Positions 11,169 through 32,000 are shown, counted from the first letter of the stretch. The stretch is 32,000 nt of DNA from an uncultured Candidatus Micrarchaeota archaeon (GCA_963741095.1 CAVUGN010000001.1:88996-120995), one strand, 5' to 3'. Numbers and translations: made by a program. The notes: a model not told the origin generated them from the sequence alone.

Positions 11169-11633
11169 CGAGCGAGACCCTCGCTGACAGTTGCAACGGG
11201 TTTAGAGATAAATCCGGCACTCTGTCGGGACCGCCTCTGTTTAAAGAGGAGGAAGGAGAGGGCCACGGTACGTCAGTATGCTCTGAATCTTCTGGGCCAC
11301 ACGCGGCATACAAAGGTTGGCACAATGAGATGCAATGCCGAAAGGCAAAGCCAATCCCCAAAAACCAACCTAAGTTCGGATTGAGGGTTGAAACCCACCC
11401 TCATGAAGCTGAAATGTCTAGTAATCGCTTGTCACCATCGAGCGGTGAATCTGTCCCTGCTCCTTGCACACACCGCCTGCCAAGTCACCTAAGTGGGGTC
11501 CTAGTGAGGCAGCACCTTAGGGTGCTTTCGAGTTAGGGTTCTATGAGGAGGGCTAAGGCATAACAAGGTATCCGTAGGGGAACCTGCGGATAGATCACCT
11601 TAAAACTTCGAGAGAAGTTACATAGTGTGCACA

Positions 11634-11797: not shown

Positions 11798-12016
11798 ATG
11801 AAAACGATAATGTTGAGCGACGAAGCTTACAATAAGCTATTGTCGATAAAGGGCACAAAAAGTTTCACAGAGCTGCTCTCTGAGATTGTTGACAAACTTA
11901 GGAGTGATAAGATGAGTGATATAGACAGATTCTTTGGGATGATGAAAGATAGTGAAGCCGAAGAACTGCGTGGATTCGTTAAGATGTCTCGGGAATCTGC
12001 AAAGGCGAGATTATGA
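11798..12016 (+). CDS. vapB: VapB-type antitoxin (small, helical)
   Basis: MKTIMLSDEAYNKLLSIKGTKSFTELLSEIV... is typical of the small archaeal antitoxins found upstream of PIN genes. Its stop overlaps the PIN gene start (ATGA). ATG 11798 is preferred over the track start at 11750. Confidence 0.7.
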   Translation: MKTIMLSDEAYNKLLSIKGTKSFTELLSEIVDKLRSDKMSDIDRFFGMMKDSEAEELRGFVKMSRESAKARL

Positions 12017-12411
12017 AACTTTTCTTGGACTCTTCGGCACTCATAGATTTTTTTAATGGAGATACTTTGATACAAAATAGAATACACGCTGCAGACAAGA
12101 TCTGCACCAGCGTCGTATGTGCATACGAAGTTTTGATAGGCGAAAGATACAAGGAGTTGAAAGGCTTGAAGTCGTCTTATGATAAAGTTTCCCAGTTCTT
12201 TGATGAGATAGAGACTTTGCCTTTCACCTACTTAAATTCGATAAAGGCAGCTGAGCTGTCTGCTAAACTCGTATTGAAAGGGAAGAAAATGAATGGACTC
12301 GATGTAATTATAGCCGCTCAGGCAATAACAGAAAATGCTTGTTTGCTGACAAAGGATAGCGATTTTAAAGTTATACAGAAAACTGCCCCCGAGCTGGTTT
12401 TGGATAGATAG
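12013..12411 (+). CDS. vapC: PIN-domain ribonuclease toxin VapC
   Basis: 132 aa. MKLFLDSSALIDFF (first acidic D), ...YEVLIGE..., ...GLDVIIAAQA..., ...LLTKDSDF; this is the canonical PIN acidic-residue layout. Confidence 0.85.
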   Translation: MKLFLDSSALIDFFNGDTLIQNRIHAADKICTSVVCAYEVLIGERYKELKGLKSSYDKVSQFFDEIETLPFTYLNSIKAAELSAKLVLKGKKMNGLDVIIAAQAITENACLLTKDSDFKVIQKTAPELVLDR

Positions 12412-17854: not shown

Positions 17855-18718
17855 ATGCTGCCAGAATGGCTTGCGATAAAGCCCGCAACAACCAAAAGGT
17901 ATGACGAGATAAGGCGGTCGATGCTCTCCTCTGGAACTTGCACGGTCTGCGTCGAGGCGCACTGCCCGAACATGTCCGAGTGCTGGAGCGCCGGAACTGC
18001 TACGTTCATGATCCTGGGCGATACCTGCACGAGAGGCTGCAGGTTCTGCAACGTTAAAAGGGGCGCTTCGGGCGCACAGGTGGACGAATCAGAGCCGGAG
18101 AAGCTCGCGGGCATGATAAAGAGGTGGAAGCTTAGTTACATTGTACTGACATCGGTCTGCAGGGACGACCTTGCGGATCAGGGAGCTTCGCATTTTGCCG
18201 CCTGCATCGAAAAAATCCGATTGGAGAATCCGAAAACGGTTATCGAGGTACTCATACCCGATTTTAGGGGCGACGTTTCGTGTTTGCAGAGGGTAGTCGA
18301 TGCACGCCCTGACGTGATAGGGCATAACATCGAAACAGTTGAACGGCTTACTCCAACGGTGAGGGACAGACGAGCAAGCTATTCGCAGTCGATTGAGGTT
18401 CTGCGCAAATCGAAGCTGCTTGACAAGAGAATCTACACGAAATCTGCGATGATGCTGGGATTGGGCGAGACGGATGATGAGATCATATCCGCGTTCGGGG
18501 ATCTCAGAGAAGCCGGAGTCGATTTCTTTGCGGTTGGTCAGTATCTCAGGCCGTCCGTTCGCAACATTGAGGTAAAGGAGTACATCAGGCCCGAAAAGTT
18601 TGAGGAATTGAGGGAGAAGGCGCTGCAATCTGGATTCGTTTACGTCGCATCAGGGCCGTTCGTCAGAAGTTCTTACAGGGCAGGGGAATATTTCGTAAAA
18701 TCCCTTGTTAAGAGGTAA
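17855..18718 (+). CDS. lipA: Lipoyl synthase LipA (radical SAM)
   Basis: 287 aa. CVEAHCPNMSECW (auxiliary cluster CX4CX5C) and CTRGCRFCNV (radical-SAM CX3CX2C), with the LipA-typical RSSY near the C-terminus. Confidence 0.92.
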   Translation: MLPEWLAIKPATTKRYDEIRRSMLSSGTCTVCVEAHCPNMSECWSAGTATFMILGDTCTRGCRFCNVKRGASGAQVDESEPEKLAGMIKRWKLSYIVLTSVCRDDLADQGASHFAACIEKIRLENPKTVIEVLIPDFRGDVSCLQRVVDARPDVIGHNIETVERLTPTVRDRRASYSQSIEVLRKSKLLDKRIYTKSAMMLGLGETDDEIISAFGDLREAGVDFFAVGQYLRPSVRNIEVKEYIRPEKFEELREKALQSGFVYVASGPFVRSSYRAGEYFVKSLVKR

Positions 18719-19423
18719 TCATCTGCTGAAATTCCACGCTTCTGTGCCGTAGACCGTCTTTGCCAGTTCCTCTGCCCTCCTTGATTCTTCGCTGCTCAAT
18801 GTTCCGAATCCGAAATCCTTGCCAGAAGTGAATCCCTTTACAAGCGCGTTGTAGAGCTCGTTTATCGAGACGTCTGAATTCTTTTTTACCGATGTGACGC
18901 GCTCCTCTGCGCTCTTTATCATCCTGTCTGACAGCTTTTCTGCGCTGACGTTGAGGACGGAGAACATCTTTTTCAGGTCGGTGTCGTAGAGCACCGTGCC
19001 GTGCTGCAGCAGCACGCCCTGTTTCCTTGTCTGCGCGTTGCCGGATATTTTTTTCCCGTTGACGGTTATGTCGTTTATCGGCTCGAAGCTTGCATCCAAT
19101 CCGATCTCCTTCAGGCCGGATATTATCCAGCCGCATACGAACCTGTAGCTTTCTCTTATTCCTTGCGGGAAGAGCTGCAGCGGCGCAATCACGCTGTAGG
19201 TTATTTCTCCGTTGAAGTCGTGGAAGACCGCTCCGCCGCCAGTTATCCTTCTTATGCAATCGATTCCGAGAGCTTTGCACCTCTGCACGTTAACCTCTTT
19301 GGCCATGCTCTGGAAGGTGCCGATCGATACCGCGCTGGGATCCCATCTGTAAAAACGTATCGTTGGCGCCGCTTTTTTGTCGCGCACCGCCTCCATTATC
19401 GACTCGTCGATGCCCATGTTCAT
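18719..19423 (-). CDS. lplA: Lipoate-protein ligase A, catalytic domain (LplA); true 5' end probably upstream of the first canonical start
   Basis: ...RFYRWDPSAVSIGTFQS...RRITGGGAVFHDFNGEITYSVI...GKKISGNAQTRKQGVLLQHGTVLY... is the LplA/BPL_LplA_LipB fold. The frame stays open upstream through 19456 and encodes RIIGLEAHDAR, which resembles the conserved first beta-strand. Confidence 0.85.
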   Translation of the reverse strand: MNMGIDESIMEAVRDKKAAPTIRFYRWDPSAVSIGTFQSMAKEVNVQRCKALGIDCIRRITGGGAVFHDFNGEITYSVIAPLQLFPQGIRESYRFVCGWIISGLKEIGLDASFEPINDITVNGKKISGNAQTRKQGVLLQHGTVLYDTDLKKMFSVLNVSAEKLSDRMIKSAEERVTSVKKNSDVSINELYNALVKGFTSGKDFGFGTLSSEESRRAEELAKTVYGTEAWNFSR

Positions 19424-19449: not shown

Positions 19450-19749
19450 TTATTCTCCACTGCGTTTTCTCACCGCGATGCCTATCGTTTCTGCTATCGC
19501 CTCTGGCGTTACGCCTATCAGTTCGGCCTTTTCTGCCGCGATAACTCCGTTCAGCACTGCCACCATCTCTTTGCCGCTCGAATCCGCATTCATGCCGATC
19601 AGCGCCTTCTCCATCTTGTACAAGGATTCCTCTGGATGGATGAAAAAGTCGCCCAGTATCCTGATGCTCCTTATGCGGTCGTCGTATTCTATGCTTACTC
19701 CGACAAGCTTGCCGCCTTTTATCTTCTGTTCAGCAAATGCCTTCATCAA
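19450..19749 (-). CDS. lplB: Lipoate-protein ligase accessory (C-terminal) domain protein LplB
   Basis: 99 aa. ...KGGKLVGVSIEYDDRIRSIRILGDFFIHPEE... matches the LplA C-terminal domain, which Thermoplasma-type systems encode as a separate gene. It lies immediately upstream of lplA. Confidence 0.8.
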   Translation of the reverse strand: MMKAFAEQKIKGGKLVGVSIEYDDRIRSIRILGDFFIHPEESLYKMEKALIGMNADSSGKEMVAVLNGVIAAEKAELIGVTPEAIAETIGIAVRKRSGE

Positions 19750-19764
19750 GAACGCCTTCCAAGT

Positions 19765-20469
19765 TTAGAGTTTGAACGACGGAAACGGCTCTGCCAGATT
19801 TATCACGCGGACGTACATGTGGGATTTGCCGCTGAATGAGTTAGACGTCTCGACCTGGCCGGTGAGGTAGTTGTAGCTGATGGAGTTAAACACTCTCTTC
19901 TGGTCGACCTTTGCAAAGGCAAGGAATCTTGCCTCGCCGTCATGGAAGATCTCGTACGAACCTATGAAATGCTCTCCCTTGTAGAAGAAGCCGTAGACCT
20001 TCGGCGCACCACTGTCATCACCCATCCCGCTTAGCAGCACCTTTATCAGCGATGCGAAATCCTTTACCGGCAGCAGTTTTATCTCCGGCTTTGCGCTGTT
20101 CTTCGCGCCGTAGGGGCTCTTCATGAACTCTATTATCGGTATCTTGTAAAGCCTCAGGTCCGGGGCCTCGGCGTTTATGTCGTCCTTCATCTCCGCGCCC
20201 TCCTCCCTTACGGATTCTTCTCCAGGGCTGTAGACGCAGAACTTGCCGATGCTGTTTGAGTCGCAGTAGTAGAGCAGGCGCACCTCGCCGACCTTCTCAC
20301 CCATGGTGAACAGATGGTATAACTTGTTCTCCTTCACTGCGTTTATGGGGCTCACGGAGCCAGTGAAGTCGCAGACGTTCCTTGCAAGATCAAGGATGGA
20401 GTTGAGCTTTATGTAGCATGCTGCCGTCTCGCCTCCGGCCTTGCCTTTTTTCTTTGGCATTGCACTCAT
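19765..20469 (-). CDS. Hypothetical cytoplasmic protein (234 aa), last gene of the pilin-associated cluster
   Basis: Its start overlaps the stop of the upstream secreted-protein gene by 4 nt (20466-20469), implying co-translation. It has no TM segment and no motif I recognise. Confidence 0.55.
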   Translation of the reverse strand: MSAMPKKKGKAGGETAACYIKLNSILDLARNVCDFTGSVSPINAVKENKLYHLFTMGEKVGEVRLLYYCDSNSIGKFCVYSPGEESVREEGAEMKDDINAEAPDLRLYKIPIIEFMKSPYGAKNSAKPEIKLLPVKDFASLIKVLLSGMGDDSGAPKVYGFFYKGEHFIGSYEIFHDGEARFLAFAKVDQKRVFNSISYNYLTGQVETSNSFSGKSHMYVRVINLAEPFPSFKL

Positions 20470-21290
20470 CTATTGAACAGGAGGTTTATCAGGTACATGA
20501 CCGCATACGCTGGCTCGTAGATTATCGGAAATGCCGGGGTGCCCTCGCCTATCGCGGCATAGTCGTTGGGTATGCTCGCCTTCACCGTGAGGGTTATGTT
20601 GCTCTGCTGCGATATGCGGGAGCTTGCCACGGAGCTGACGCGCAGCACCGTGTGATAGACGTTTGGCTCCTGGGCGTATATCGAGTAGATGTAGGTCTGC
20701 GCGGTGTGGTGCAGCGCTATGACCGTTGAGTTGGAGTCCCAGGCCGGCAGGCCCTGCATGCCGATCACGAACGGGCTGTCGGAAACTCCGGTGTTGTTTA
20801 TGTGCACGTACACCTTCGCAGGCTGGCCTATGCCAGAGCTTATGTCCGTGGGCGTTACGCTGAGCTTGAAGACGTCGGGAGTTACGTTCACGTAGATGTG
20901 GAAGGTTAGGTTCCCGACTTTTGAGTAGTTGCCGACATTGACCGCGGTGAGGTTGATCCGGTACATCCCGTCGATTGCGCCGGGTGCCACAGTCAGCTTG
21001 ACTGTCGGGTATTGGTTGTAGAGCGAGGAGTTCTGCGCTATCCAGCCCCCGGGCACGTAGGAGGCGACAAGCTTGTTCCATCCCTGGTTGAGCAGGTAGC
21101 CTGTTGAATTCGTGGTCGCGGAGGAGATCGTGATGTAGAAGGTCTGGCCCGGACCGGCCTTGCCTATGAACACGCTGCTGTTGTTCTGCACAGTCACGTT
21201 GTAGGGCTCCACTATGTTGACATAGGCTGCGCTAGACAGCGTCATCAGTACCAGCAGGATCAAAGGCGCAAAGTAAACGGTTCTTACCAC
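20466..21290 (-). CDS. Secreted/membrane-anchored glycoprotein candidate (274 aa)
   Basis: GTG start. Signal peptide MVRTVYFAPLILLVLMTLSSAAY. Many N-x-S/T sequons (NVT, NNS, NST, NSS, NLT, NYS, NVT, NNT, NST, NIT). Beta-rich repetitive body and a hydrophobic C-terminus (AYAVMYLINLLF). Confidence 0.7.
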   Translation of the reverse strand: MVRTVYFAPLILLVLMTLSSAAYVNIVEPYNVTVQNNSSVFIGKAGPGQTFYITISSATTNSTGYLLNQGWNKLVASYVPGGWIAQNSSLYNQYPTVKLTVAPGAIDGMYRINLTAVNVGNYSKVGNLTFHIYVNVTPDVFKLSVTPTDISSGIGQPAKVYVHINNTGVSDSPFVIGMQGLPAWDSNSTVIALHHTAQTYIYSIYAQEPNVYHTVLRVSSVASSRISQQSNITLTVKASIPNDYAAIGEGTPAFPIIYEPAYAVMYLINLLFNR

Positions 21291-21376
21291 ACAATCACTT
21301 CACTATAGTTTCAAAGCATACATTAATTTAGTTTTTGTTGGGCGGCCTTGGGGCCCTTCTGCCCGCACTTGTGCGT

Positions 21377-21934
21377 TCAGCTGAACTTGGCGGAGAATTG
21401 TATGATCCGCTGTATCGTGTTCGTGGTGCTTGGCAGGTTGGAGTAGGTGTAATTCAGCCAGAGGTAGCCGGTCATCGTGGTGCCCGGAGAGCCCTTGGCA
21501 TAGCCGTTGGCGCCGAAGCAGTTTGCCGAGAATGCGACCTGGCTGCTGGAGTACAGCGTGAGGGGCGTCTGCAGGTTGCTGTTGACAGGATAGAACTGCG
21601 GAGCCGCGGTGTATTTGACGAGATTGATGTTGCCGTACTGCGGCCAGTCGCCTATGGCGTTGACCGAAGCCGAACAGGCTGCGGCGTTTATTATTATGGT
21701 GCCGCCGGTCGCCTGCGAGAGCAGCACGGTGAACGAGCCGGTCCTGTTGAGCGCGAAGGCGACGCACGAGAACGACGGAGCGGCGTTGCAGTAGGTTGGC
21801 GCGAGGGCCTGGTTCGCGAACATGAAGTGGAATATCACGTAGGAGATTATCGCGAGCACTATGAACACAAGCCCGTACGCGGACATGAAATCCAGGGCCG
21901 CCTGGGCTTTCATGGGTTTTGTCTTCGCACTCAT
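21377..21934 (-). CDS. Archaeal type IV pilin-like protein (class III signal peptide)
   Basis: The N-terminus MSAKTKPMKA|QAALDFMSAYGLVFIVLAIISYVIF has a basic leader, a (K)(A/G)-Q processing motif with acidic +5, and a roughly 20-aa hydrophobic helix, followed by a Cys-containing beta-rich body. It starts 12 nt after the response-regulator stop. Confidence 0.75.
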   Translation of the reverse strand: MSAKTKPMKAQAALDFMSAYGLVFIVLAIISYVIFHFMFANQALAPTYCNAAPSFSCVAFALNRTGSFTVLLSQATGGTIIINAAACSASVNAIGDWPQYGNINLVKYTAAPQFYPVNSNLQTPLTLYSSSQVAFSANCFGANGYAKGSPGTTMTGYLWLNYTYSNLPSTTNTIQRIIQFSAKFS

Positions 21935-21946
21935 GGAATTCCTCGA

Positions 21947-23149
21947 TCACTCTTCTTCCGCTCCGGACTTGCCGATCTGGAGCTTGACTCCGCTGGGATC
22001 CCGCGTTATCTTCACGTCGAGCTCGTCGCTGCCGAAGAGCTTGCGCAGCTCGTCGTAGGTGTATGAGCCCAGGTCCCTTGCCACGTCGCCCTTGCTCTTG
22101 AGTATCTCCTTCCTGCGCTCGGCTATCTTCTCCTTGTCGACGCGCTCGAACGACAGTGACAGCCGCGGCACCTCGTTCGATTCGAAGAGGTTGTCTATGT
22201 TGAGGTCTATGAACTTGTAGCCCTCGTCCTGCAGTATGAACGGGAGCACCGCGTTGAATTCCTGCTTCACCTCCTCGACCGCCGCCTCGACGCGCTCCTT
22301 GGAGCCGGCGAGCACGAAGACGTCGCTGTTCAGGAAGCCCGCGAAGGCGCGCTCCTCCTTGTCCTTCGACAGTATGTCCTGCAGCAGCTGCGAGACTAGC
22401 CTGAGTATGACGACTCCGGATTTCCCGCCGAAGCGCTTCACGTAGTCGCCCAGGTGCTCTATCTTCAGCGTGCCTATGAAATATTCGGATCCCGCCTTTA
22501 TGGAGTGCTCCACCTCCTTGGATATGCGCTCCTCGTCAGGCAGGTCTATGAGCGGGTCGAACTTCTTGCCCTTCTTCTTCAGGAATATTGTGACAAGGCT
22601 CCTCAGCTCCTTGGGATCGAACGGCTTCTTTATGTAATAGTCTGCGCCGTACTTCAGGCCCTTGAACCTGTTGCTCGTCGGGTCCATTGCGCTTATAAGT
22701 ATGACCGTGGTGTTGCTCGTGTCAGGATCGCCCTTTATGGTCTGGCAGATGTCCAGGCCATCCTTGTTGGGCAGCATCAGGTCGAGTATGACCAGATTCG
22801 GCCTGTTGCTCCTTATGAATTTTATCGCCTCGCCGCCGTCGTACAGCTGGTTTATCTCGAACTCCTTCCCTATCGAGAGCGCCATGAGCTTGTTTATGTT
22901 CTTGTCGTCCTCTACGATCAGCACCTTCCTCAACGGGTTCTGCTGCAGCAGGTAGTACATCATCACGCCCCCGGCGCTCCTTGATGCGATCAGCTGCTTC
23001 TCTTCCAGCACCAGGAGGCTGTCCCTGAGCTTGCGCTCGGATATGCCCCGGTTGAACGCGACGTCGCCCAGCTCGTTGTAGGAGATCTGCTGCCGCTCGT
23101 TTATTATGCTCAGAATGTCGTCAATTTCGCTGCCGTTCTGTGAAGCCAT
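21947..23149 (-). CDS. Response regulator: N-terminal winged-HTH, receiver (REC) domain, C-terminal degenerate GGDEF-like (nucleotidyl-cyclase fold) domain
   Basis: The REC domain has LIVEDD, ILDLMLP (phospho-Asp), VILISA and KKPF. The C-terminal half is DPLIDLPDEERI...FIGTLKIEHLGDYVKRFGGKSGVVILRLVSQLL...AFAGFLNSDVFVLAGSKERVEAAVEEVKQEF. By eye it aligns position-for-position with the GGDEF layout D-x-LTGLxNR...LDIDxFKxxND..GHxxGDxxL...aRyGGDEFxxll...A..xAExir. The signature GG(D/E)EF is replaced by LNSDVF. Confidence 0.6.
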   Translation of the reverse strand: MASQNGSEIDDILSIINERQQISYNELGDVAFNRGISERKLRDSLLVLEEKQLIASRSAGGVMMYYLLQQNPLRKVLIVEDDKNINKLMALSIGKEFEINQLYDGGEAIKFIRSNRPNLVILDLMLPNKDGLDICQTIKGDPDTSNTTVILISAMDPTSNRFKGLKYGADYYIKKPFDPKELRSLVTIFLKKKGKKFDPLIDLPDEERISKEVEHSIKAGSEYFIGTLKIEHLGDYVKRFGGKSGVVILRLVSQLLQDILSKDKEERAFAGFLNSDVFVLAGSKERVEAAVEEVKQEFNAVLPFILQDEGYKFIDLNIDNLFESNEVPRLSLSFERVDKEKIAERRKEILKSKGDVARDLGSYTYDELRKLFGSDELDVKITRDPSGVKLQIGKSGAEEE

Positions 23150-23296
23150 CCAATCGCCTATAGGGTATCAACAAAAAGTAATATTAGGCTTTTGATGTTT
23201 CGGTTGTAGTCGGAAGGTCCTGCGCTCCGATTGAAGGCGCTCGCACGCATTAGCCAACGTATTTAAAGTCTTTTTGACCAATAACTACGTTTTTAC

Positions 23297-24295
23297 ATGG
23301 CGGAACCCAGCAGAGACCCGGCAAGATCCAGCAGGCGTGGACATGGCATGAACAAGACGGCCATCGGGGCGCTTGTGGTGGTCGTGATAGCGATCGTTTG
23401 GGCATATTTTGCATTGTCGAATGGCGCCGTGGGCATCAGCGCTGCCAGCGTGGAAACCCTTACCCCCGCACCGAGCTATTTCAGCATGGGTTCGGGCACA
23501 TACTCCTTTTCGGTCGCACAGACGGGAAACAGCATGGCCTACGTTTATGTCGACAAGCTTCCGGTGTTCATGAACCAGCCGATGGAGGTCATGGTCGAGG
23601 AGAACAACATGACAAGGATAAACGCCGACTCTGGCAGCTTTGCAAACATGGGGATAACGCTTCAATCCGTGAACGGCAACAGCGTGAAGGTGGAGATAAC
23701 ACCGTTGGAGGCGAGCCTTGGGCTTGCGCCGGACACGGCCAGGATAAGCACTGTGAACAACATGCTGCTCGCCAACGGCAGGAAGAACGTTACGACGAGC
23801 ATCACCACAACGGCCACCACGACCGTTGCGTCAACCACCACGGTCTCGCAGATCAACACCACGAGCGCGAACATAATGGCTGCGCTCAAGAAGAACAAGT
23901 CCTACGCAGTGATGCAGAACTACACCGTCCTGTACGCAAATTCGGCAAACTGCACGCAGAGCAAATACAACAGCGCGTACCTGAAATACTACGGTGTCAT
24001 GCCAACCGGGCCGGAGGACTACCTGAACGTCAGCACGTTCCCGCTGCCTTATGGCTTCTACACGAAAACGACGAACATTGGCAGGGGCAACTATTCGTTC
24101 GTTTACAAGTCCGAATCGACGGATTCCGATTACAACAACAGTCCTGCAGTGACCATACTGATAAACGTATCGGGCTCCAGCGCGTACAACGTGACTTTCG
24201 GGGGCATATTCGAAGGCCAGACTTATCTTGGAATACTCGATGGTTACAATAAAGCTGCGGGCATAGGCGGCCCATGCGCGGCAGTCGTGCCGTAA
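23297..24295 (+). CDS. N-terminally anchored extracellular glycoprotein candidate (332 aa)
   Basis: A basic N-tail precedes the TM helix AIGALVVVVIAIVWAYFAL. The body has a Thr-rich linker (TTSITTTATTTVASTTTV) and many sequons. A TATTTAAA box at 23260-67 favours ATG 23297; ATG 23348 is the alternative. Confidence 0.7.
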   Translation: MAEPSRDPARSSRRGHGMNKTAIGALVVVVIAIVWAYFALSNGAVGISAASVETLTPAPSYFSMGSGTYSFSVAQTGNSMAYVYVDKLPVFMNQPMEVMVEENNMTRINADSGSFANMGITLQSVNGNSVKVEITPLEASLGLAPDTARISTVNNMLLANGRKNVTTSITTTATTTVASTTTVSQINTTSANIMAALKKNKSYAVMQNYTVLYANSANCTQSKYNSAYLKYYGVMPTGPEDYLNVSTFPLPYGFYTKTTNIGRGNYSFVYKSESTDSDYNNSPAVTILINVSGSSAYNVTFGGIFEGQTYLGILDGYNKAAGIGGPCAAVVP

Positions 24296-24299
24296 CTGG

Positions 24300-26582
24300 T
24301 TATTGCGCGTCCTTGTGCACTGCCGGCTGCGCCGATGCCGGCTTCTTCTTCGGCTTCGGGTTTATCGGCAGCGTGAACCAGAACTTGCTGCCCTTTCCTG
24401 GCTCCGACACAAAGTCGATCTTGCCGCCGTGCAGCGTTATTATGTCCTTGGTTATTGACAGCCCCAGGCCGGTGCCCGCCTGCTCCTGCTTGACCAGCTC
24501 CTTCTTCGGGGCCTGGTAGAACTTCTTGAAGAGTTGCCTCTGGTCCTCGGGGTTTATGCCTATTCCAGTGTCGATGATGCTGCACTTCACGGACTTCTTG
24601 CTCTTTCTTTCTATCTCAACGGTTATGCCGCCGGTCTCGGTGAACTTCACCGCGTTTCCTATCAGGTTCACGAAGACCTGTATGAGCCGGTTTATGTCCG
24701 CGGTTATCTCGGGCACGTCGAACTTCGCGTTCCATGCGAAGGTCAGCCCCTTTGCCTCGGCGGATTCCTTGAGCGCCTTTATGCTCGGGTTGCCGCCCAG
24801 CTCCTTGAGGTCGACGCCCTCCTTCAGCTCGAGCTTCACCTTGTCGGAGTCGAGCTTCGCCGCCTCGAGCACCTGCTGTATTATCTGCGTGAGCCGCTTC
24901 ACTTCTTCTATTATTGTGAAGACGTAGTCCTTCTGCTCGGCGTTAAGCACACCGGGGCCGCCGTCGTACAGCAGTATGGAATAGCCGTTTATGTTAGTGA
25001 GCGGCGTCTTCAGCTCGTGGGTTATGTTGTAGATGAACTGGGACTTGAGGTCGCTTGTGGACTTGAGCCTGCTCACTTTGTTGAGCAGTTCCTTTATATC
25101 AGATTCCTGCTCGTTGATCCTCCTTCTCGTGGCCAATTCCTTCGTAACTATTATGTAGCTGGAATTCCCGTCTATGTCCTTGAAGGCGCGCATCGAGTGC
25201 GTCGCAGGCACCTTCGAGCCGTCCTTTGCGAACAGGTCTATGTAGGAGTTGTCCACCTTATTGCCCTTTCTCACGTAGGACATGTCGCGGTCGAGTATGG
25301 ACGGGTCGGCATAGAGGTTTCTTATGTCCTTGCCGGCGAGCTGGTCCCGCGCATAGCCCAGCACGGGCTCCACAGGCATGTTCGAACTTTTTATAAGTCC
25401 TGTTGCGTCAACCACCATGACTATGTCCGAGGTGTTGTCTATGAAATCGGTAAGAGTGGACTGCATGTTGGCCACGTACTGCTCGGCTCGCGCGTTCGCG
25501 AACAGCAGCACGTACCCGTTCGTCAGCTTCGACGCGACATAGCGTATCAGCACCGGGGCGGAATCGGCGCTCATCAGGTTCATCGAACCTGAGAGGCTTC
25601 GCGTTCCCTTGGACAGCTTCTCCTTTAGCTCGACCCTTTCGTTCAGGGGCACCATGTCGGTTATGAGCTTCCCGACGACCAGGTCGCTCTGGTATCCCAT
25701 GACCTTCTCTATGCTGTTGGTGACGTCGGTGACCGTCAGGTTGTCGTCGAGGTACATTATCCCGGCGTATGCAGACTCGCCCATCAGCGAGAGGATCTTC
25801 TTGAACTTCTCGAGCTCGGTCACGTTCTGCACCGAGACGTGCATCAGCCGCTCGTTGACCGGCCTTGAGGCCAGCGCGTAAACGCGCATGGCGTTGTTCA
25901 GGTTGAGCTCCACCCTCGCGCTGCCCGAAGCGAGCTGCTTGACGTCGAGGTTGAGTATCTTGCCGATCTCGCTGTTCTGCACATCGTAGCCGAACTCGTT
26001 GATGGCGCTCTTGTTCGCCTTGACTATTGAGCCTGTGTTCGACACAAGCAATTGCGGTGTAACGCTGCTGAAGGCGCCGTCGAAATAGCTCGCCAGCCTC
26101 GCGCTCTTGCTGCTCTCGTACTTGTACATCAGCGCGAAGCCCATGAACGAGGCTCCGAACGAGATGCTGCTCATCAGGTCCTCGGTGAACTTGTTCTCCG
26201 CGTTGGAGAGCAGCTCCATCACCGACACGACCCTGCCGCCAGTCATGACCGGCATGATGGCGCAGCTCTTGTAGCCCCTGTTCTTGTAGCCTATGAATTC
26301 GGGAAACGAAGAGAAATCGCTCAGCTGGTTGTCGATGTAACTTTTTCGGGTGTTGAGCACGTAGTCGAGCAGCGCGCTGCTCTTGTAGTCGCCGCTGTAG
26401 ATGTTGGTCATGCTGACCTTGTCCAGGCCGAAGTACTCCGAGATTATCTTGGTGAACTGCCTCGTCAGCTCTTCCTCGCTCACCGCGCTGTTGGTGATGG
26501 GTATGAGGTCGAGGAGCAGTTTGCTGACAACCATTTCGTGTACCATATCAACATACCCTTCCAGACGAGTGCAGCCATTCAA
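24300..26582 (-). CDS. Cytoplasmic sensor histidine kinase (GAF-like domain, about 3 PAS-like domains, HisKA, HATPase_c)
   Basis: The H-box is SQFIYNITHELKTPLTNINGYS (His codon at 25017-25019). The N box is NLIGNAVKFT, G1 is DTGIGI and G2 is GTGLGLSI. No TM segments. The roughly 500-aa N-terminal sensory region has PAS-like repeats. Confidence 0.88.
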   Translation of the reverse strand: MNGCTRLEGYVDMVHEMVVSKLLLDLIPITNSAVSEEELTRQFTKIISEYFGLDKVSMTNIYSGDYKSSALLDYVLNTRKSYIDNQLSDFSSFPEFIGYKNRGYKSCAIMPVMTGGRVVSVMELLSNAENKFTEDLMSSISFGASFMGFALMYKYESSKSARLASYFDGAFSSVTPQLLVSNTGSIVKANKSAINEFGYDVQNSEIGKILNLDVKQLASGSARVELNLNNAMRVYALASRPVNERLMHVSVQNVTELEKFKKILSLMGESAYAGIMYLDDNLTVTDVTNSIEKVMGYQSDLVVGKLITDMVPLNERVELKEKLSKGTRSLSGSMNLMSADSAPVLIRYVASKLTNGYVLLFANARAEQYVANMQSTLTDFIDNTSDIVMVVDATGLIKSSNMPVEPVLGYARDQLAGKDIRNLYADPSILDRDMSYVRKGNKVDNSYIDLFAKDGSKVPATHSMRAFKDIDGNSSYIIVTKELATRRRINEQESDIKELLNKVSRLKSTSDLKSQFIYNITHELKTPLTNINGYSILLYDGGPGVLNAEQKDYVFTIIEEVKRLTQIIQQVLEAAKLDSDKVKLELKEGVDLKELGGNPSIKALKESAEAKGLTFAWNAKFDVPEITADINRLIQVFVNLIGNAVKFTETGGITVEIERKSKKSVKCSIIDTGIGINPEDQRQLFKKFYQAPKKELVKQEQAGTGLGLSITKDIITLHGGKIDFVSEPGKGSKFWFTLPINPKPKKKPASAQPAVHKDAQ

Positions 26583-26667: not shown

Positions 26668-27066
26668 ATGCGCGACATAAGAGGCTTGGTCGCGAGAGCC
26701 CTGAGGGACATGGAGCTCGCGAAGAGGTACAGACAGAGGAAGGAATACGCGGCGACCACATTGCTCTACAACAAGGCGATAGAGAGAGTGCTCAAGGCCC
26801 TGTTCATAAGCAAGAAGAGGAAGAACCCGCCACTGGGAGCGTCTGCGGTGTTCCTGGCGTCCAACATCAAGATGCCCGAAGAGATAATGAGCGGGCTGGC
26901 GGCGCTGCAGGAGGCCGACGACGAGGTCTTGTGGAGCGGAAATGAGGCGGCCATAATGACCTACGAGCGGATAGGCAAGAGCATGAAGGCGGAGCACAAG
27001 CTCATCCAGATGGACGAGCTCGCCACGAGGCTCATCGACTCCGCGATGGGGCGCGCCAAGGCATGA
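26668..27066 (+). CDS. HEPN-domain-like protein (132 aa)
   Basis: ARALRDMELAKRYRQRKEYAATTLLYNKAIERVLKALFI fits the HEPN helix pattern A..dL..A......Y..a....qA.Ek.lKAL. I did not see a clear R-x4-6-H motif or a partner nucleotidyltransferase. Confidence 0.45.
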   Translation: MRDIRGLVARALRDMELAKRYRQRKEYAATTLLYNKAIERVLKALFISKKRKNPPLGASAVFLASNIKMPEEIMSGLAALQEADDEVLWSGNEAAIMTYERIGKSMKAEHKLIQMDELATRLIDSAMGRAKA

Positions 27067-27131
27067 ATGCGGGATGGGAGGCCGCACGGATAGGATTTAT
27101 AGTCTTCACAGCCCCAATAGTGGTGGATCCA

Positions 27132-27791
27132 ATGGCATTGAGGCAGCTTTTTCCGGGCGTTTATCTCATAGACGGCAAGATCGCAACTCTTAACCTCGCA
27201 AGAGGCTACAAGGTCTACGGCGAGGATCTCGTCGTGGTCGACAGGGAGGAGTACAGGCTGTGGAACCCGTACAGGAGCAAGCTCGCCGCGGCGATGAAGG
27301 TCGGGATGAGGAACTTCAACATAAGATGGGGCGACCGCGTCCTGTATCTCGGCGCCGCCACGGGGACGACGGCCAGCCACGTGAGCGACATAGTCGGAAA
27401 GGACGGCAGGGTCTACGGCCTGGAGCTTTCGGAGCGGAACATGCGCGAATTCATAGGCGTCTGCGAGCACAGGAGCAACATGCTGCCGATACTCGCAGAT
27501 GCAAGGTACACGGACAGCTACAGCGGAACTGTCGATCTTTGCGATGTGATATACCAGGACGTTTCCGCAAGGGACCAGGCGCACATACTGTTGGAGAACA
27601 GCAGGTTCCTTAAGAAGGGCGGGCTTGCTTATTTCGTCATAAAGTCGCAGAGCGTCGACGTGTCGAAGAGGCCCGAAGAGGTTTATCGCAACGTGCTGGA
27701 CAGGCTGAAGGGCAGTTTCTCGATTCTTGAGCGCATGAGCCTTGAGCCCTACGACAGCCTGCACCTGTTCACGGTGCTCAGGAAGATTTAG
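27132..27791 (+). CDS. flpA: Fibrillarin (rRNA/tRNA 2'-O-methyltransferase FlpA)
   Basis: ...LFPGVYLIDGKIATLNL..G.KVYGE......YR.WNPYRSKLAAA...VLYLGAATGTTASHVSDIV...YGLE.S.R......R.N..PIL.DAR.... ATG 27132 gives a typical roughly 219-aa archaeal fibrillarin. The track start at 27063 adds a non-homologous leader. Confidence 0.92.
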   Translation: MALRQLFPGVYLIDGKIATLNLARGYKVYGEDLVVVDREEYRLWNPYRSKLAAAMKVGMRNFNIRWGDRVLYLGAATGTTASHVSDIVGKDGRVYGLELSERNMREFIGVCEHRSNMLPILADARYTDSYSGTVDLCDVIYQDVSARDQAHILLENSRFLKKGGLAYFVIKSQSVDVSKRPEEVYRNVLDRLKGSFSILERMSLEPYDSLHLFTVLRKI

Positions 27792-27807
27792 CTTTGGTGG
27801 TGGATCC

Positions 27808-28632
27808 ATGGATGCCGGAAAATGCATGAAGCTGCTAAGAGACATAGAGAAATCCGGAACGAAACTCATCTGCACCTACTGCGGAGTCGAGACGCTGTCG
27901 GTGGGCAGCACGGGCATATGCTCCAACTGCGAGAATTTCATAGACACGGACAGGAAGTCGCTCATGGGCACCGACCCGGAGCGGGTGGACGACCTCGATG
28001 CCATAAGGAAAGGAATCGCGAACAGGGATTTCGAATCCGTGATATCGGTCTATGAAAAGATGAGGAGCGTCGACGAAGAGCCGTCGCTGATGTACGCCGA
28101 GGCACTGGCGTGCATAGGCTACTCGAACTATGAGATATCACTCATAAGATACGACAGGAAGGGTTTCATGGAGGAGAACACGGCGCTCCGGAACAAGGGC
28201 TCCGAGATCGCTTCGAAAGCTAAACTGCTGATCACTAAGGCCATGCACCTCGCGACCGATGACATAGACAAGGGAAATGCATCCACGGGCACCATGTACA
28301 CCCTCTTCCTGTTGCAGATAAAGCTTGGAGCGATGAAGGGGGCGGAGTACATGCTGCACGAGCTGAACAGGGTCGGAGGCTACATCCCGGAGTACACCAA
28401 CATCGTCTTCAATGCGAACATGAGGAGGTATGAAGACATGATGAAGCACGTCGACATGATGGAGAGGGGCAACCAGCTCCCGCTGAATACGGTCTATTAT
28501 GTCGCATTGGCGCTGTTCAAAAGCGGGAATATTGCAGATTCTGGGGGGCTGCTGGTGGCGCTGCAGAAATTTATGTCCAGTCCCAATGTTGAATCGCTAC
28601 TTGCAGAGATCGTGGGCACGCAGCAGGTATGA
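27808..28632 (+). CDS. Hypothetical protein with N-terminal zinc ribbon (CxxC-x15-CxxC) and helical-repeat (TPR-like) body
   Basis: ATG 27808 is preceded by GGTGGTGGA. The Zn ribbon is CTYCGVETLSVGSTGICSNCENF, and the remainder is helical. The track start at 27742 overlaps fibrillarin. Confidence 0.6.
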   Translation: MDAGKCMKLLRDIEKSGTKLICTYCGVETLSVGSTGICSNCENFIDTDRKSLMGTDPERVDDLDAIRKGIANRDFESVISVYEKMRSVDEEPSLMYAEALACIGYSNYEISLIRYDRKGFMEENTALRNKGSEIASKAKLLITKAMHLATDDIDKGNASTGTMYTLFLLQIKLGAMKGAEYMLHELNRVGGYIPEYTNIVFNANMRRYEDMMKHVDMMERGNQLPLNTVYYVALALFKSGNIADSGGLLVALQKFMSSPNVESLLAEIVGTQQV

Positions 28633-29415: not shown

Positions 29416-32000
29416 TTAGCTATTAAATAGTGGTTTCCGATAGGTCGGCCAGGTGCTGTGCCGCCTTCTCCTCTTTACGGCCAGGTATATGGCCGACATG
29501 ATTATGATGATGGAGACTGCCGCTATGCCGTATTCGGCGCCGTTGTTGGATGTTGGCTTTTGCGCTATCGTGGTGGGCGTTGTCGTAGCAGGCTGTGTCG
29601 GTTCGAACAGTGCCACGGTGCGATCCACGCCGATGTTGAATGACACCAAGCAGGCGGTAGCGTTGATCGTGCCATTCGTTATCGGCTGCCATGTGCCGTT
29701 TACCAACAGGTATGGGGATACCTCGCTTGAAGGTATGCTGCAATTGTAGCTGAGCCGCATCATCAGGTTCAGTTCGGACTGCAATTTCGCGACGCCGGTC
29801 ACGTTTATCCTCAATGCGAGGAGCTTTGTATAACCAGGAAGGAGCACAGTATCGTTGCGGGTCACATTGGTTATTGTTATGTTGAAGTGCCCTGAGGATG
29901 TGGACTGTACGATTACATACGCCTGGCCATTGTTGAGGTCGAGCGTGCTGGATCCCGAGCTCGGCACCGATATTGTTGTCGAGACGTTGTTTCCAGACAC
30001 GTTCAGCTGGGGCGTAGTCTGCGGCTGCACGGTGGTCGTGGCTGTTGTCGCAACGGTGGTGATCGTAGAGGTGGCAGAGGTGGTTGAAGAGATCGCATTT
30101 GTGGAAGGGGAGCCCGACCCAGCCCCGCCCTGTGATTGCTGTGTGCCAACCTGGATGGTGTTCTGGACCGAACTGAAGATGTATGGAACGTTGGTGCCGG
30201 TGTCCGTGATAACCGCGTTGTACGAATCCGTGCCTGCAGGAGGGACGAATGCCCCGAAAGTGATGGTGCCGGCGAACTGGCCGGTGAGCGTATTGACCAC
30301 CGCGCCACTAGATGCGACTAGGTTGGCGACGAACGGTCCAATGCCGCCATTGAGAAGCACGTTGTAGGTGATAGATTGGCCAACAGTCAATTGAGATGCG
30401 GACGGCGTCAGGGAAGTGGCGGTGGGCGTAACCGCGACAGTTATGGTGTTTGATGATGCCGAGAATGAGGATTCCGGAGTGTTAGAAGAATCAGTCACTT
30501 CGAGCGCGAAGTTGTAGGTGTTGCCGCCTGCCAGCGTGCCTGCAGGTATGGTACAAGTCGCGGTGTTGCCCGCGATCTGGCCGCTGCCGGTGTTCGCAGT
30601 GCACTGGGTTGCGCCGGAATATGCACCGCCATTCACGGAAATGTGCCAGGTGTATGAATAGGGCGATGTGCCAGTGGACGGCAAGACGGCGGTTATTGTT
30701 TCAGTCTGGCTGGAGTCGATTGTTGAATACGCTATTCCTGGCTGGGCTGATTGAGTGAGTTGCGGTGACACGGTTATGGTCGACGAAGCAGTGGATGTGG
30801 AAATCTCATTAGCCTGCGAGCTGTCGGATACTCGGAGTTCGAAACTGTAGGTTTTGATTGTGGATAATGTGTTGCCGGGTATGCTGCAGGTGACGATGTT
30901 GCTGGAAGTCTGCCCGGTGCCGCTGTTGGTTGCGCATTGGGTTGTGGCGGAATATGAGACGCCCCCGTTGGTCGAGACGAGCCAATTATAGGTGTATGGC
31001 GATACTCCGGTTGATGGGATCACGGCAGTGATTGTCTCGGCCTGATCGACGTCGAGCTTCGATGTTGACACCGTGGGCGCGGATGGCGCTGTGAGCGGCG
31101 GATACACAGTAACAGTGCCGGATGAAGCGGAGAAGACGCTCTCCTGGGCGGTCGCGGAATCTGTTGTCTCCAGCGCGAAGGTGTAGAAGTCGCCTCCGGA
31201 CAATGTGTTGCCTGGTATGGTGCATGTGACCGTGTTGCCGGGGATCTGGCCGCTGTTGCTGTTGACTGTGCATTGCGTTGCGCCGGCGTATACGCCGTTG
31301 TTTGTGGAGACGTGCCACGTGTACGCGTAAGGCGAGGTGCCCGTTGACTGGATGTTGGCGGTCACAGTCTCAATCTGGTCGGAGTCGAGGTTCGCGGCCG
31401 AGATTGATGGAGTGTTGGAATTTGTGAGCGGCGACGCCACGACGACGTTCTGAGTCGTGAATGAGTTCGTCGTGTCGGGAATCGTGTCGCTGTCGGTGAC
31501 CTGCAGCTTGAATGAATAGGTGTGCGTGGCGATAAGATTTCCTCCGAAGATGTTGCAAAGCACCGTAACGCCGTTGGCTTCGCCCGTTCCGCTGTTGACG
31601 TCGCATTGGGCCGTCGGTGCATAAGAGCCGCCGTTGTCCGAGATCAGCCAATTGTAGGTGTACGGTGCGGTGCCCGTTGATGGCATGACGCCGGTTAGGA
31701 TCTCTGTTTGGTCCGCGTCGAGGCTTGATGCGGAAACTGCAGGCGAGTTTGCCACAGCCGGGGATACCACGTTTATCGTGTTGTTTGAAGCGGAAAATGC
31801 GCTCTCCTGCGCGGTCGCGGAATCCGTTATCTCAAACGCGAAGTTGTAGAAGTTGCCACCGGCGAGAGTATTGCGCGGAATGGTGCAGGTGACTGTGTTG
31901 CCCGCAATCTGGCCGGTGCCGCTGTTGACCGTGCACTGCGTTGCGCCGGCGTATACACCGTTGTTTGTGGAGACGTGCCACGTGTATGAATAGGGCGCTG
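29416..32000 (-). CDS. Very large repeat-containing surface protein, 3' part (5' end outside window); C-terminal TM anchor
   Basis: The track ORF begins at GTG 31770. My translation of 31771-31998 in the same frame has no stop and continues the repeat (...APYSYTWHVSTNNGVYAGATQCTVNSGTGQIAGNTVTCTIP...). From N to C the window shows at least 5 tandem 111-aa Ig-like units, one degenerate unit, a T/S linker and a sequon-rich domain. The C-terminus is the TM helix AAVSIIIIMSAIYLAV followed by KRRRRH. Confidence 0.85.
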   Translation of the reverse strand, partial: APYSYTWHVSTNNGVYAGATQCTVNSGTGQIAGNTVTCTIPRNTLAGGNFYNFAFEITDSATAQESAFSASNNTINVVSPAVANSPAVSASSLDADQTEILTGVMPSTGTAPYTYNWLISDNGGSYAPTAQCDVNSGTGEANGVTVLCNIFGGNLIATHTYSFKLQVTDSDTIPDTTNSFTTQNVVVASPLTNSNTPSISAANLDSDQIETVTANIQSTGTSPYAYTWHVSTNNGVYAGATQCTVNSNSGQIPGNTVTCTIPGNTLSGGDFYTFALETTDSATAQESVFSASSGTVTVYPPLTAPSAPTVSTSKLDVDQAETITAVIPSTGVSPYTYNWLVSTNGGVSYSATTQCATNSGTGQTSSNIVTCSIPGNTLSTIKTYSFELRVSDSSQANEISTSTASSTITVSPQLTQSAQPGIAYSTIDSSQTETITAVLPSTGTSPYSYTWHISVNGGAYSGATQCTANTGSGQIAGNTATCTIPAGTLAGGNTYNFALEVTDSSNTPESSFSASSNTITVAVTPTATSLTPSASQLTVGQSITYNVLLNGGIGPFVANLVASSGAVVNTLTGQFAGTITFGAFVPPAGTDSYNAVITDTGTNVPYIFSSVQNTIQVGTQQSQGGAGSGSPSTNAISSTTSATSTITTVATTATTTVQPQTTPQLNVSGNNVSTTISVPSSGSSTLDLNNGQAYVIVQSTSSGHFNITITNVTRNDTVLLPGYTKLLALRINVTGVAKLQSELNLMMRLSYNCSIPSSEVSPYLLVNGTWQPITNGTINATACLVSFNIGVDRTVALFEPTQPATTTPTTIAQKPTSNNGAEYGIAAVSIIIIMSAIYLAVKRRRRHSTWPTYRKPLFNS
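30148..32000 (-). repeat. Tandem array of 333-bp (111-aa) coding repeats with alternating A/B subtypes
   Basis: The P-Y-x-Y-x-W motif recurs at residues 36, 147, 258 and 369 of the track ORF and again at the window edge. A-type units (YTWH(V/I)S..NG.Y.GATQCT.N...GQI.GNT.TCTIP) alternate with B-type units (YTYNWL(I/V)S.NGG). A-type copies 663 nt apart (about 31258-31330 and 31921-31993) are nearly identical in DNA. Confidence 0.85.

Follow-up and report, generated by a model that had tools for sequence, protein, structure and literature searches.

A conserved Micrarchaeota gene cluster combining a histidine kinase, a degenerate GGDEF-type response regulator and a prepilin-type protein

We describe a cluster of six genes in a stretch of 32,000 nucleotides (the window) from an uncultured Candidatus Micrarchaeota archaeon (GCA_963741095.1, CAVUGN010000001.1:88996-120995), a member of the DPANN archaea whose window also carries an archaeal 16S rRNA gene. 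As judged from gene order and protein families, the cluster is a genuine module of the Micrarchaeota for signalling and surface proteins, conserved and for the most part undescribed, and is composed of parts of known types and of three orphan families. It encodes a histidine kinase (HK), a response regulator (RR), a protein with a prepilin-type signal peptide (the pilin-like protein), two predicted envelope proteins (g274 and gp332) and a predicted cytoplasmic protein (g234). Under the mechanism that we favour, HK and RR would control the prepilin-type protein and probably the envelope glycoproteins as well; taken as a whole, this mechanism seems to us a roughly even call. The six genes are:

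19765-20469, minus strand: g234, open reading frame (ORF) of 234 residues
20466-21290, minus strand: g274, ORF of 274 residues
21377-21934, minus strand: pilin-like gene, ORF of 185 residues
21947-23149, minus strand: RR gene, ORF of 400 residues, with its TGA stop codon at 21947-21949
23297-24295, plus strand: gp332, ORF of 332 residues, transcribed away from the RR gene and towards the HK gene
24300-26582, minus strand: HK gene, kinase ORF of 760 residues

Our ORF calling in the window reproduced all six genes and the spacing given for them in a preliminary description of this DNA, which had proposed a signal-controlled surface-filament or adhesion module. The TGA codon of RR is separated from the ATG of the pilin-like gene (21934) by 12 nucleotides, tcGAGGaattcc, which include a GAGG Shine-Dalgarno-like motif. 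The stop of g274 and the start of g234 overlap by 4 nucleotides (20466-20469), so that g234 is predicted to be translationally coupled to g274, and a spacer of 86 nucleotides (21291-21376) lies between g274 and the pilin-like gene. Independent public gene calls on an identical sequence contain the same genes with slightly shifted starts: 748 residues for HK, 178 residues for the pilin-like protein when started at Met8 (leaving a 33-nucleotide gap to RR), and 274 or 265 residues for g274.

Conservation and rearrangement of the cluster

The regulator was searched for in one genome per GTDB species, which yielded 237 stretches with an RR relative, and the best 80 of these 237 were taken as loci. 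In these best 80 the regulator was full length with 57-92% identity, and the carriers were Micrarchaeota apart from a few evidently misbinned contigs; at least 120 clusters of RR relatives scored above 540 bits. The six proteins and their neighbours were mapped by tblastn onto 83 loci, 79 of them distinct and 31 with complete 8-kb flanks. Each of the six had full-length homologues, in the same arrangement, in many Micrarchaeota genomes. Close homologues came from Micrarchaeota assemblies throughout, the nearest being an uncultured Ca. Micrarchaeota bin (L004, 92% identity), and the cultivated Ca. Micrarchaeum harzensis A_DKE carries the whole cluster (L057). Binning or labelling errors probably account for some contigs with the cluster that are filed in metagenome-assembled genomes under the names Candidatus Acidoferrum sp., Candidatus Acidiferrales bacterium and Methanothrix sp. 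(L011, L051 and L053), and for several more that bear the label Marsarchaeota.

The pilin-like gene was found in 73 of the 79 distinct loci, in every one of these 73 directly 3' of RR, and in 29 of the 31 loci with complete flanks. The corresponding figures were 68 and 28 for g274, 63 (beside RR) and 28 for gp332 (27-40% identity), 58 (within 8 kb of RR) and 25 for HK, and 56 and 25 for g234. All six genes occurred together in 20 of the 31. The gap between RR and the pilin-like gene had a median of 4 nucleotides in 77 loci (range -23 to +77, overlaps being common), and that between g274 and g234 a median of 13.5 nucleotides in 60 loci. The distance from the pilin-like gene to g274 was bimodal, with 14-161 nucleotides in 42 loci and 570-2512 nucleotides in 23.

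Several loci carry the cluster in rearranged form. In two of them (L072 and L075) the g274-g234 pair is inverted upstream of RR, with gp332 and HK downstream of the pilin-like gene; in L073 the pair is inverted on the other side of RR, HK follows the pilin-like gene directly and gp332 has moved downstream of the latter; in L080 and L081 HK again follows the pilin-like gene directly; and in L020 g274 and g234 are shifted 4 kb away as a pair. HK is still adjacent after rearrangement in L072, L073, L075, L080 and L081. The downstream flank is a breakpoint, being occupied by LplB/LplA/LipA genes here and in L004 and by the genes of ribosomal proteins S13/S4/S11 in L001. Conservation of the neighbourhood in relatives, on which the preliminary description had staked its proposal, was thus borne out, both by the loci that hold all six genes and by the rearranged loci that stay clustered. 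Comparison of gene order across these loci shows that the RR-pilin pair, the g274-g234 pair and the cluster as a whole are conserved across the Micrarchaeota phylum.

Two loci (L036 and L058) lack the orthologous pilin-like gene, g274, g234, gp332 and HK from their 8-kb flanks. In both, RR is still flanked by other genes for proteins with class III (prepilin-type) signals, of the QSAMEYLMTYGWAILII type, which indicates that the invariant core consists of the regulator and a prepilin-type gene.

The longer spacing from the pilin-like gene to g274, seen in 23 of 65 loci, accommodates an inserted gene for a P-loop kinase of about 190 residues (Pfam AAA_18/AAA_33). Where the kinase was detected (L001 at 9764-10303, L016, L040, L044, L046, L048, L050-L052, L063, L069 and L070), its Walker A motif was GMPGSGK[ST]T in 11 of the 12 loci and GPPGSGKST in L063. 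It is tandemly duplicated in L044, L050 and L052, and our window has no such gene at this position.

A response regulator with a winged helix, a receiver and a degenerate GGDEF-fold domain

Over its 400 residues RR comprises a winged helix (wHTH), a receiver (REC) domain and a degenerate GGDEF-fold domain with a C-terminal extension:

22946-23140, minus strand: winged helix, residues 4-68, with the AlphaFold2 secondary structure H-E-H-H-E-E
22577-22927, minus strand: receiver, residues 75-191 (PF00072, E 4e-23, Pfam match at residues 76-186)
21974-22564, minus strand: GGDEF-fold domain, residues 196-392, catalytically degenerate

The preliminary description had called this protein a REC-GGDEF-like regulator, which holds for the receiver and for the GGDEF fold; the winged helix had been overlooked, and the catalytic and guanine-binding residues are missing. 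The N-terminal 70 residues gave weak winged-helix matches (CggR_N, E 0.004; HTH_12, E 0.019), and the wing bears the motif IASRSxGG..YY. In the receiver, the phospho-acceptor set E80 D81 D82, D123, S153 and K175-P176 is invariant in an alignment of 34 sequences, and the domain superposes on known structures with root-mean-square deviations of 1.2-2 Å. With its acidic pocket, D123, S153 and K175 all invariant, RR is, by these residues, competent for phosphorylation. JGI names its homologues OmpR/PhoB-family factors, an assignment that we rejected: neither Pfam nor NCBIfam gave a Trans_reg_C match, and the OmpR-type models of NCBIfam match RR only over its REC part (residues 73-205), far under their cut-offs.

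The C-terminal half is recognizable by fold. Pfam found the receiver as the sole domain of RR, and its GGDEF family did not match at E<=0.1. From 34 homologues we obtained an AlphaFold2 model (predicted local distance difference test, pLDDT, 81) with three domains, the third of them an alpha/beta domain at residues 206-392. When this model was compared with the PDB by Foldseek, the top 15 matches were all REC-GGDEF proteins, namely WspR, PleD and DgcR (E 2e-12 to 6e-10, over about 270-345 aligned columns). A profile of the C-terminal half gave a single match in the PDB, the GGDEF protein 6eib (E 0.085), in a colinear alignment that sets ...TLKIDNLGEYAKRFGE...FVGFLNSDEFVIAG... of RR onto ...SIDIDNFKLINDQFGH...FCGRVGGEEFIIVL... 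and places NSDEF onto GGEEF. On the model and the profile together, the fold of this region is GGDEF, in keeping with the GGDEF-like domain of the preliminary description.

The catalytic motifs of this domain are replaced. In RR itself the GG[DE]EF motif reads N-S-D-V-F, with a family pattern of [ND][SGT][DET]xF; the first metal-binding Asp has become Lys or Arg, the guanine-binding Asn has become Ala or Val and the guanine-binding Asp has become Leu or Val, where the roles of these positions are presumably those of their counterparts in PleD. As the GG[DE]EF motif, the metal-binding Asp and the guanine-binding residues are all replaced, synthesis of cyclic di-GMP (c-di-GMP) by RR is very unlikely, and an active diguanylate cyclase was rejected as an identity for it. 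Hardly any variation is seen in the entry motif, DPLIDLPDE (compare DPLTGLPNR), and the mean column identity of the domain is 70%. By part, conservation is 0.97 for the linker between REC and the GGDEF-like domain, 0.87 for REC, 0.84 for the wing, about 0.71 for the GGDEF-like domain and 0.57 for the recognition helix. The regulator is about as conserved as fibrillarin (57-70% versus 54-66% identity).

A WspR-like regulator with REC and an inactivated GGDEF domain has been noted in Ca. Micrarchaeum acidiphilum, in one sentence that does not discuss its neighbours, by Galperin, Makarova, Wolf and Koonin (2018, PMC5847659), who warn that bacterial-type regulators in such assemblies may be contamination. 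That regulator and the present RR family are almost certainly the same protein family. As RR is conserved at full length in the best 80 of the 237 stretches and stands in an archaeal gene context, the family is, on this comparative evidence, genuinely archaeal, which answers the question of contamination.

The gene downstream of the regulator encodes a prepilin-type signal peptide

The product of the gene that follows RR begins with MSAKTKPMKA / QAALDFMSAYG (the slash marking the predicted cleavage site) and continues into a hydrophobic helix (maximum hydropathy 2.61 at residue 22); Met8 (nucleotide 21913) is an alternative start. A class-III-like motif was found in 79 loci, over which the family shares a basic leader ending in [KR][GAS], then Q-[AS]-[AS]-[LI]-D-[FYL]-[LMI]-x-[SA]-Y-G and some 20 hydrophobic residues. 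Both Q+1 and D+5 are invariant in an alignment of 25 sequences (A4), the mature protein, given as 174 residues, keeps a nearly constant length (172-180 residues), and the globular domain of about 140 residues contains four invariant Cys and a conserved W-x-N-Y-T sequon. By this motif the protein carries a conserved class III signal peptide. Its cleavage by a prepilin peptidase and its assembly into filaments would be expected for a protein of this kind.

Matches to curated families were few. Pfam and NCBIfam contained no pilin or archaellin model that matched at E<=0.1 (PF04021, TIGR02537 and similar), and weak DUF7287 matches, confined to the region of residues 5-46, occurred in 6 of the 25 members. 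No PDB sequence relative was found for the globular domain; a PDB match of the pilin-like/g274 query to the 'GPGQ' of HIV gp120 was rejected as a chance motif. The earlier designation as a type IV pilin-like gene is therefore upheld by the conserved class III signal peptide and by no curated pilin model.

The QSAMEYLMTYGWAILII type mentioned above is a second family with class III signals, of 275-850 residues and with a near-identical N-terminus, at least one member of which has a Laminin_G_3 domain. It is scattered round the module in 16 of the 83 loci (for example, L001 14289-15218 on the minus strand; L036 7038-7889 and 9202-10119; L048 at about 4258 and 5523; L071 at about 5081 and 7827), and it replaces the pilin-like orthologue beside RR in L036 and L058.

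Three orphan families: g274, gp332 and g234

The two remaining exported proteins agree with their earlier descriptions as a secreted, sequon-rich protein and an N-anchored glycoprotein. In g274, a Sec-type signal peptide is followed by 12 N-x-S/T sequons, an invariant INNTGVSDSPF and a conserved hydrophobic C-terminal tail, FPIIYEPAYAVMYLI; two Ig-like beta-sandwich regions are predicted, with weak matches to Fn3, CARDB, BatD and NEW3. Its 308 homologues are all 'hypothetical' and all from Micrarchaeota, and no sequence relative was found in the PDB. The other, gp332, has a basic cytoplasmic tail, one N-terminal transmembrane (TM) helix, a Thr-rich linker, 12 sequons and a conserved C-terminal motif G-x-A-C-G-I, a layout that predicts an N-terminally anchored extracellular glycoprotein; nothing in Pfam or NCBIfam matched it.

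With neither a signal peptide or TM anchor nor sequons, g234 is predicted to be cytoplasmic. The structure prediction proposed for it in the preliminary description gave an AlphaFold2 model (pLDDT 84) with two beta-alpha-beta4-like halves and no significant relative in the PDB by Foldseek (best E 0.025, TM-score 0.19); matches to VOC-type and actin-like proteins were scattered and were judged to be noise. An exhaustive profile search of 1.84 billion representatives found 173 clusters at 50% identity, the complete ones of 205-242 residues and none fused to another protein, and Pfam, NCBIfam and PADLOC gave no match. By these searches, g274, gp332 and g234 are lineage-specific unannotated families.

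Two other identities for the locus were considered and rejected. The S-layer protein of A_DKE, SLP_Mh (Micr_00292), is a PF05123-like protein of 101 kDa (bioRxiv 10.1101/2021.04.28.441871), unlike g274 and gp332, which are of 29-35 kDa and have no S-layer domain. As for an anti-phage defence system, PADLOC gave only weak matches to the REC and HATPase regions.

A soluble histidine kinase and its possible input

The kinase combines an N-terminal GAF-like region, up to three PAS domains, HisKA and HATPase_c. HisKA (residues 513-579; PF00512, 60.9 bits, cut-off 26.9; H-box ITHELKTPL), HATPase_c (residues 629-740; PF02518, 103.7 bits, cut-off 26.4) and one PAS domain (PAS_9) scored above the Pfam thresholds; GAF and two more PAS domains of the originally proposed GAF/PAS/PAS/PAS order appeared only below them. 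NCBIfam histidine kinase families were matched too. With HisKA and HATPase_c both intact, HK is by its domains a HisKA-type sensor kinase. Its true start is probably Met13 (nucleotide 26546), giving 748 residues. Since it has no TM-like segment (maximum hydropathy over 19 residues, 1.42), HK is predicted to be soluble, as had been proposed.

Adjacency to RR, which persists after rearrangement, suggests that HK would phosphorylate it, and so does the complete Micrarchaeota genome of Mia14, which encodes one HK and one RR containing a helix-turn-helix (Galperin et al. 2018, PMC5847659). The solubility of HK also bears on the direction of signalling. The surface proteins might be the input of the system and not its output, in that a complex of the pilin-like protein, gp332 and g274 would report contact or the state of the envelope to HK, perhaps via g234, in parallel with the sensing of pilin levels by PilS in Pseudomonas. 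A kinase without membrane or extracellular parts would need a transducer for any outside signal, what is possibly the sole two-component system has kept three exported proteins and a cytoplasmic one beside it, and co-expression at the level of a regulator suits a low-abundance sensor component better than a major pilin. However, cytoplasmic PAS/GAF kinases are the archaeal norm and usually sense internal ligands (PMC5847659), nothing ties g234 or the N-terminus of the pilin-like protein to HK, and HK is the least tightly linked member of the cluster, missing within 8 kb in 6 of the 31 loci with complete flanks. We regard this inverted arrangement as very doubtful.

Promoters and transcription units

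Two intergenic regions contain promoter-like elements:

23150-23296: divergent promoter region between RR and gp332, assigned by consensus
21291-21376, minus strand: spacer separating g274 from the pilin-like gene; it contains ctAAATTAAtg, which is TATA-like, and GTGA as a Shine-Dalgarno-like motif

On the RR side of the divergent region, a combined transcription factor B recognition element (BRE) and TATA box, aaagCCTAATATTac, lies about 40 nucleotides before the ATG, together with a GGCGA Shine-Dalgarno-like motif; the element aaAGcATAATATTc...GGTGAcc keeps its position in about 80 loci. On the gp332 side, the TATA box TATTTAAA lies about 27 nucleotides before the ATG at 23297 and is conserved across loci, consistent with a leaderless or short-leader gp332 mRNA. 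TATA-like and GGTGA elements precede g274 in most loci, and 21291-21376 is thus probably a separate promoter for g274-g234.

As RR, g274 and gp332 have their own conserved promoter-like elements, the module is predicted to comprise at least four transcription units: HK; gp332; RR-pilin; and g274-g234. The tight units are RR-pilin and g274-g234. A single polycistron running from RR through the pilin-like gene to the genes downstream, as envisaged in the preliminary description, does not agree with these separate promoters or with the kinase gene found between the pilin-like gene and g274 in the 23 loci.

Possible modes of action

In the mechanism that we favour, the soluble PAS/GAF kinase would sense an intracellular cue and phosphorylate RR. 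The regulator would be made from the same mRNA as the prepilin-type protein, probably in step with it, and would control that protein, itself and probably the neighbouring gp332 and g274, the latter with its cytoplasmic partner g234. Its output would be either transcriptional, through the winged helix, or exerted by protein contacts of the inactive GGDEF domain; DNA binding and a regulon are what the winged helix would suggest. The pilin-like protein would be cleaved by the FlaK/EppA-type prepilin peptidase of the genome and would be inserted into, or would prime, a type IV pilus system encoded elsewhere. Filament formation, adhesion and attachment to a host would then be conceivable end points.

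Elsewhere in such genomes, suitable machinery has been described. In Mia14, two type IV pilus systems are reported together with a single prepilin peptidase of the FlaK-like kind, and many Ca. Micrarchaea share them (Golyshina et al. 2017, PMC5498576), and a prepilin peptidase is annotated in A_DKE (Micr_00634; PMC8975820, supplement). In the window, Pfam and Walker A scans of the ORFs found no pilus ATPase, platform protein or prepilin peptidase domain, in agreement with what had been noted before. A complete pilus operon in relatives was likewise sought and not found in the 83 loci, and neither these nor the window held an ORF with a VirB11/PilB/FlaI-type Walker A motif, the sole P-loop matches being the kinase of about 190 residues.

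A number of observations weigh against the favoured mechanism. In none of the 83 loci do the 8-kb flanks encode a pilus ATPase, a platform protein or a prepilin peptidase. Separate conserved BRE/TATA-like and GGTGA elements precede RR, g274 and gp332, and a shared operator upstream of the three was not seen on inspection of about 70 aligned regions for each, made without a formal motif search; those alignments displayed basal BRE/TATA, proximal AT-rich and Shine-Dalgarno elements only. The recognition helix is the least conserved structured part of RR, which is unexpected for a factor that binds a conserved site. Co-translation with a regulator argues against the pilin-like protein being an abundant major pilin, and it may instead serve as a minor pilin or belong to a sensing complex. 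The P-loop kinase gene interrupts the cluster in the loci listed above. Large surface glycoproteins are common in the window, so that adjacency to the regulator alone is weak evidence. Finally, upstream of the module, synteny in 40-45 of the 79 distinct loci extends to the genes for a HEPN protein, fibrillarin and x296, a zinc-ribbon protein, which implies that part of the conservation is due to the inertia of gene order in small genomes.

This last group of facts is what would be expected if HK and RR controlled something unrelated and small genomes merely kept ancestral neighbours together, as the upstream synteny, the separate promoters and the inserted kinase gene would allow. Against such mere inertia, at least three independent types of rearrangement hold the six genes together while their flanks change, the gaps between RR and the pilin-like gene are operon-like in the 77 loci, and where the orthologue is lost another gene with a class III signal stands by RR and the other partners vanish together. 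We therefore find it rather improbable that the association is one of gene order alone.

The details of RR conservation raise a more pointed alternative. Phosphorylated RR might act post-translationally, in the manner of FimX or CheY-type regulators, with the inactive GGDEF domain, possibly nucleotide-bound, docking on a pilus ATPase, a pilus platform or, from the cytoplasmic side, the prepilin and thereby turning the assembly of a surface structure on or off. As the recognition helix is weakly conserved and the REC-GGDEF linker and GGDEF-like domain, the latter two being the most constrained parts outside REC, are not, a FimX-like output by protein contacts is a serious rival to transcriptional control. 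Translational coupling with the pilin-like gene suggests matched production of the two proteins, the upstream regions revealed no shared operator by eye, and archaeal regulators act mostly through protein-protein contacts (PMC5847659). On the other hand, RR has a winged helix at its N-terminus, the wing of which is conserved; none of the loci compared holds a linked pilus motor gene; and the nucleotide-binding residues of an active GGDEF domain are replaced. A purely post-translational action is, in our judgement, unlikely.

A bolder version of HK-RR control would make this apparently sole two-component system the dedicated controller of a type IV pilus-like structure for host contact, with the dead GGDEF domain as the receptor of a nucleotide second messenger and g234 as a new fold coupling the export or assembly of g274. 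We consider this combination a long shot. If true, an archaeal phylum would for the first time be seen to have a GGDEF-based signalling node of its own, passed on by vertical inheritance. DPANN archaea such as the Micrarchaeota live attached to host cells, and for the question of how they sense and regulate host contact the cluster offers a concrete, phylum-wide target; the presence of all six genes in A_DKE makes transcriptomics, proteomics, cryo-electron tomography and biochemistry feasible. GGDEF domains are, to our knowledge, otherwise almost absent from archaea, and selection on this GGDEF-derived domain, which is as strong as on fibrillarin, calls for a functional explanation in these organisms.

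Other features of the window

Besides the module, the window encodes ribosomal proteins, fibrillarin, lipoylation and lipid-synthesis enzymes, 16S rRNA and tRNA-Lys. Features of note are:

6213-6866, plus strand: ankyrin-repeat protein of 217 residues (Ank_2, E 6e-31)
6871-9285, minus strand: ORF of 804 residues, no Pfam match, with a signal peptide, 29 sequons, a long stretch rich in Ser/Thr and a TM anchor at the C-terminus
9610-11603, plus strand: 16S rRNA gene
10670-11110: ORF inside the 16S rRNA gene, with a weak LAGLIDADG_3 match (E 0.026)
12013-12411, plus strand: PIN-domain gene, flanked by the 16S rRNA gene and by ribosomal protein genes (S11/S4/S13)
17855-18718, plus strand: radical-SAM gene, probably LipA
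18719-19423, minus strand: gene for an LplA catalytic domain
19450-19749, minus strand: ORF of 99 residues, directly 3' of g234
26668-27066, plus strand: HEPN gene, overlapping the fibrillarin start by 4 nucleotides
27063-27791, plus strand: fibrillarin gene
27742-28632, plus strand: x296, Cys-rich protein of 296 residues with CxxC...CxxC and no Pfam match
29416-31770, minus strand: ORF of 784 residues, no Pfam match, with a C-terminal TM anchor and a basic tail

The ORFs of 804 and 784 residues are probably large surface glycoproteins. Ankyrin repeats in symbionts are often associated with host interaction. The 16S rRNA gene spans 1994 nucleotides against the 1478 positions of the model, and about 500 nucleotides are thus inserted; together with the internal ORF this suggests that an rRNA intron is present, whose homing endonuclease may have decayed. 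The rRNA genes appear to be unlinked, since neither a 23S nor a 5S gene adjoins the 16S rRNA gene. In a public contig the PIN-domain gene is followed by a VapB-antitoxin-like gene, incomplete at the end of the locus (L084 21188-21203).

The 99-residue ORF marks the downstream boundary of the module and is common only to the closest relative (L004); with the LplA-domain gene it may form a split lipoate-protein ligase with a separate C-terminal subunit. As called, x296 overlaps the fibrillarin gene by 50 nucleotides, and it is syntenic with fibrillarin in 40 of the 79 loci, at a place where a Nop5-like partner would normally be expected.

Comparison with known systems

A search of the literature for the cluster returned only the single sentence on the regulator in Galperin et al. 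(2018), and a survey of archaeal type IV pili mentions neither Micrarchaeota nor receiver proteins. The earlier statement that no archaeal system of this composition had been described thus stands for the cluster, on which no paper was found, and needs amendment for its regulator, whose REC and inactivated GGDEF domains had already been noted (PMC5847659). No c-di-GMP system is known in archaea, according to the same work.

The RR of the cluster shares with WspR, PleD and DgcR the order of REC followed by GGDEF, their rank as top structural matches and a retained DPL..LP entry motif. It differs from them in its N-terminal winged helix, in a C-terminal extension of about 60 residues and in the replacement of the catalytic motifs. 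The comparison with FimX of Pseudomonas and Xanthomonas, a REC-PAS-degenerate GGDEF-degenerate EAL protein that controls type IV pilus assembly through PilB/PilZ, is by fold only: both proteins would combine a receiver with a catalytically dead GGDEF domain, the functional tie to type IV pili being that of FimX, whereas EAL and PAS domains are absent from RR, which has a winged helix at its N-terminus.

The pilin-like protein resembles the archaeal type IV pilins (PibD/FlaK/EppA substrates, DUF361 'QxSxE') in its short basic leader ending in [KR][GAS], its Gln at +1 and acidic residue at +5, its hydrophobic helix of about 20 residues and its small glycosylated globular domain with disulfides. 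Unlike them, the family has Asp and not Glu at +5 in every member, and its gene is encoded with a regulator and not with an assembly ATPase and platform protein.

The best functional analogy is with PilS-PilR-PilA of Pseudomonas, Myxococcus and Geobacter, in which a two-component system stands beside a type IV pilin gene and controls it. In both cases HK, RR and a prepilin-type gene are clustered, and the pilin gene comes right after the regulator. PilR, however, is of the NtrC type (REC, AAA+ sigma-54 activator and Fis helix-turn-helix), whereas the Micrarchaeota RR consists of a winged helix, REC and a degenerate GGDEF domain without AAA+, and archaea are, as far as we know, without sigma-54. 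PilS is membrane-bound, in contrast to the soluble HK predicted here, and sequence kinship with PilS-PilR is limited to the generic REC and HisKA/HATPase domains. By this comparison, the Micrarchaeota cluster is an analogue of PilS-PilR-PilA in the logic of its genes and not a member of that family.

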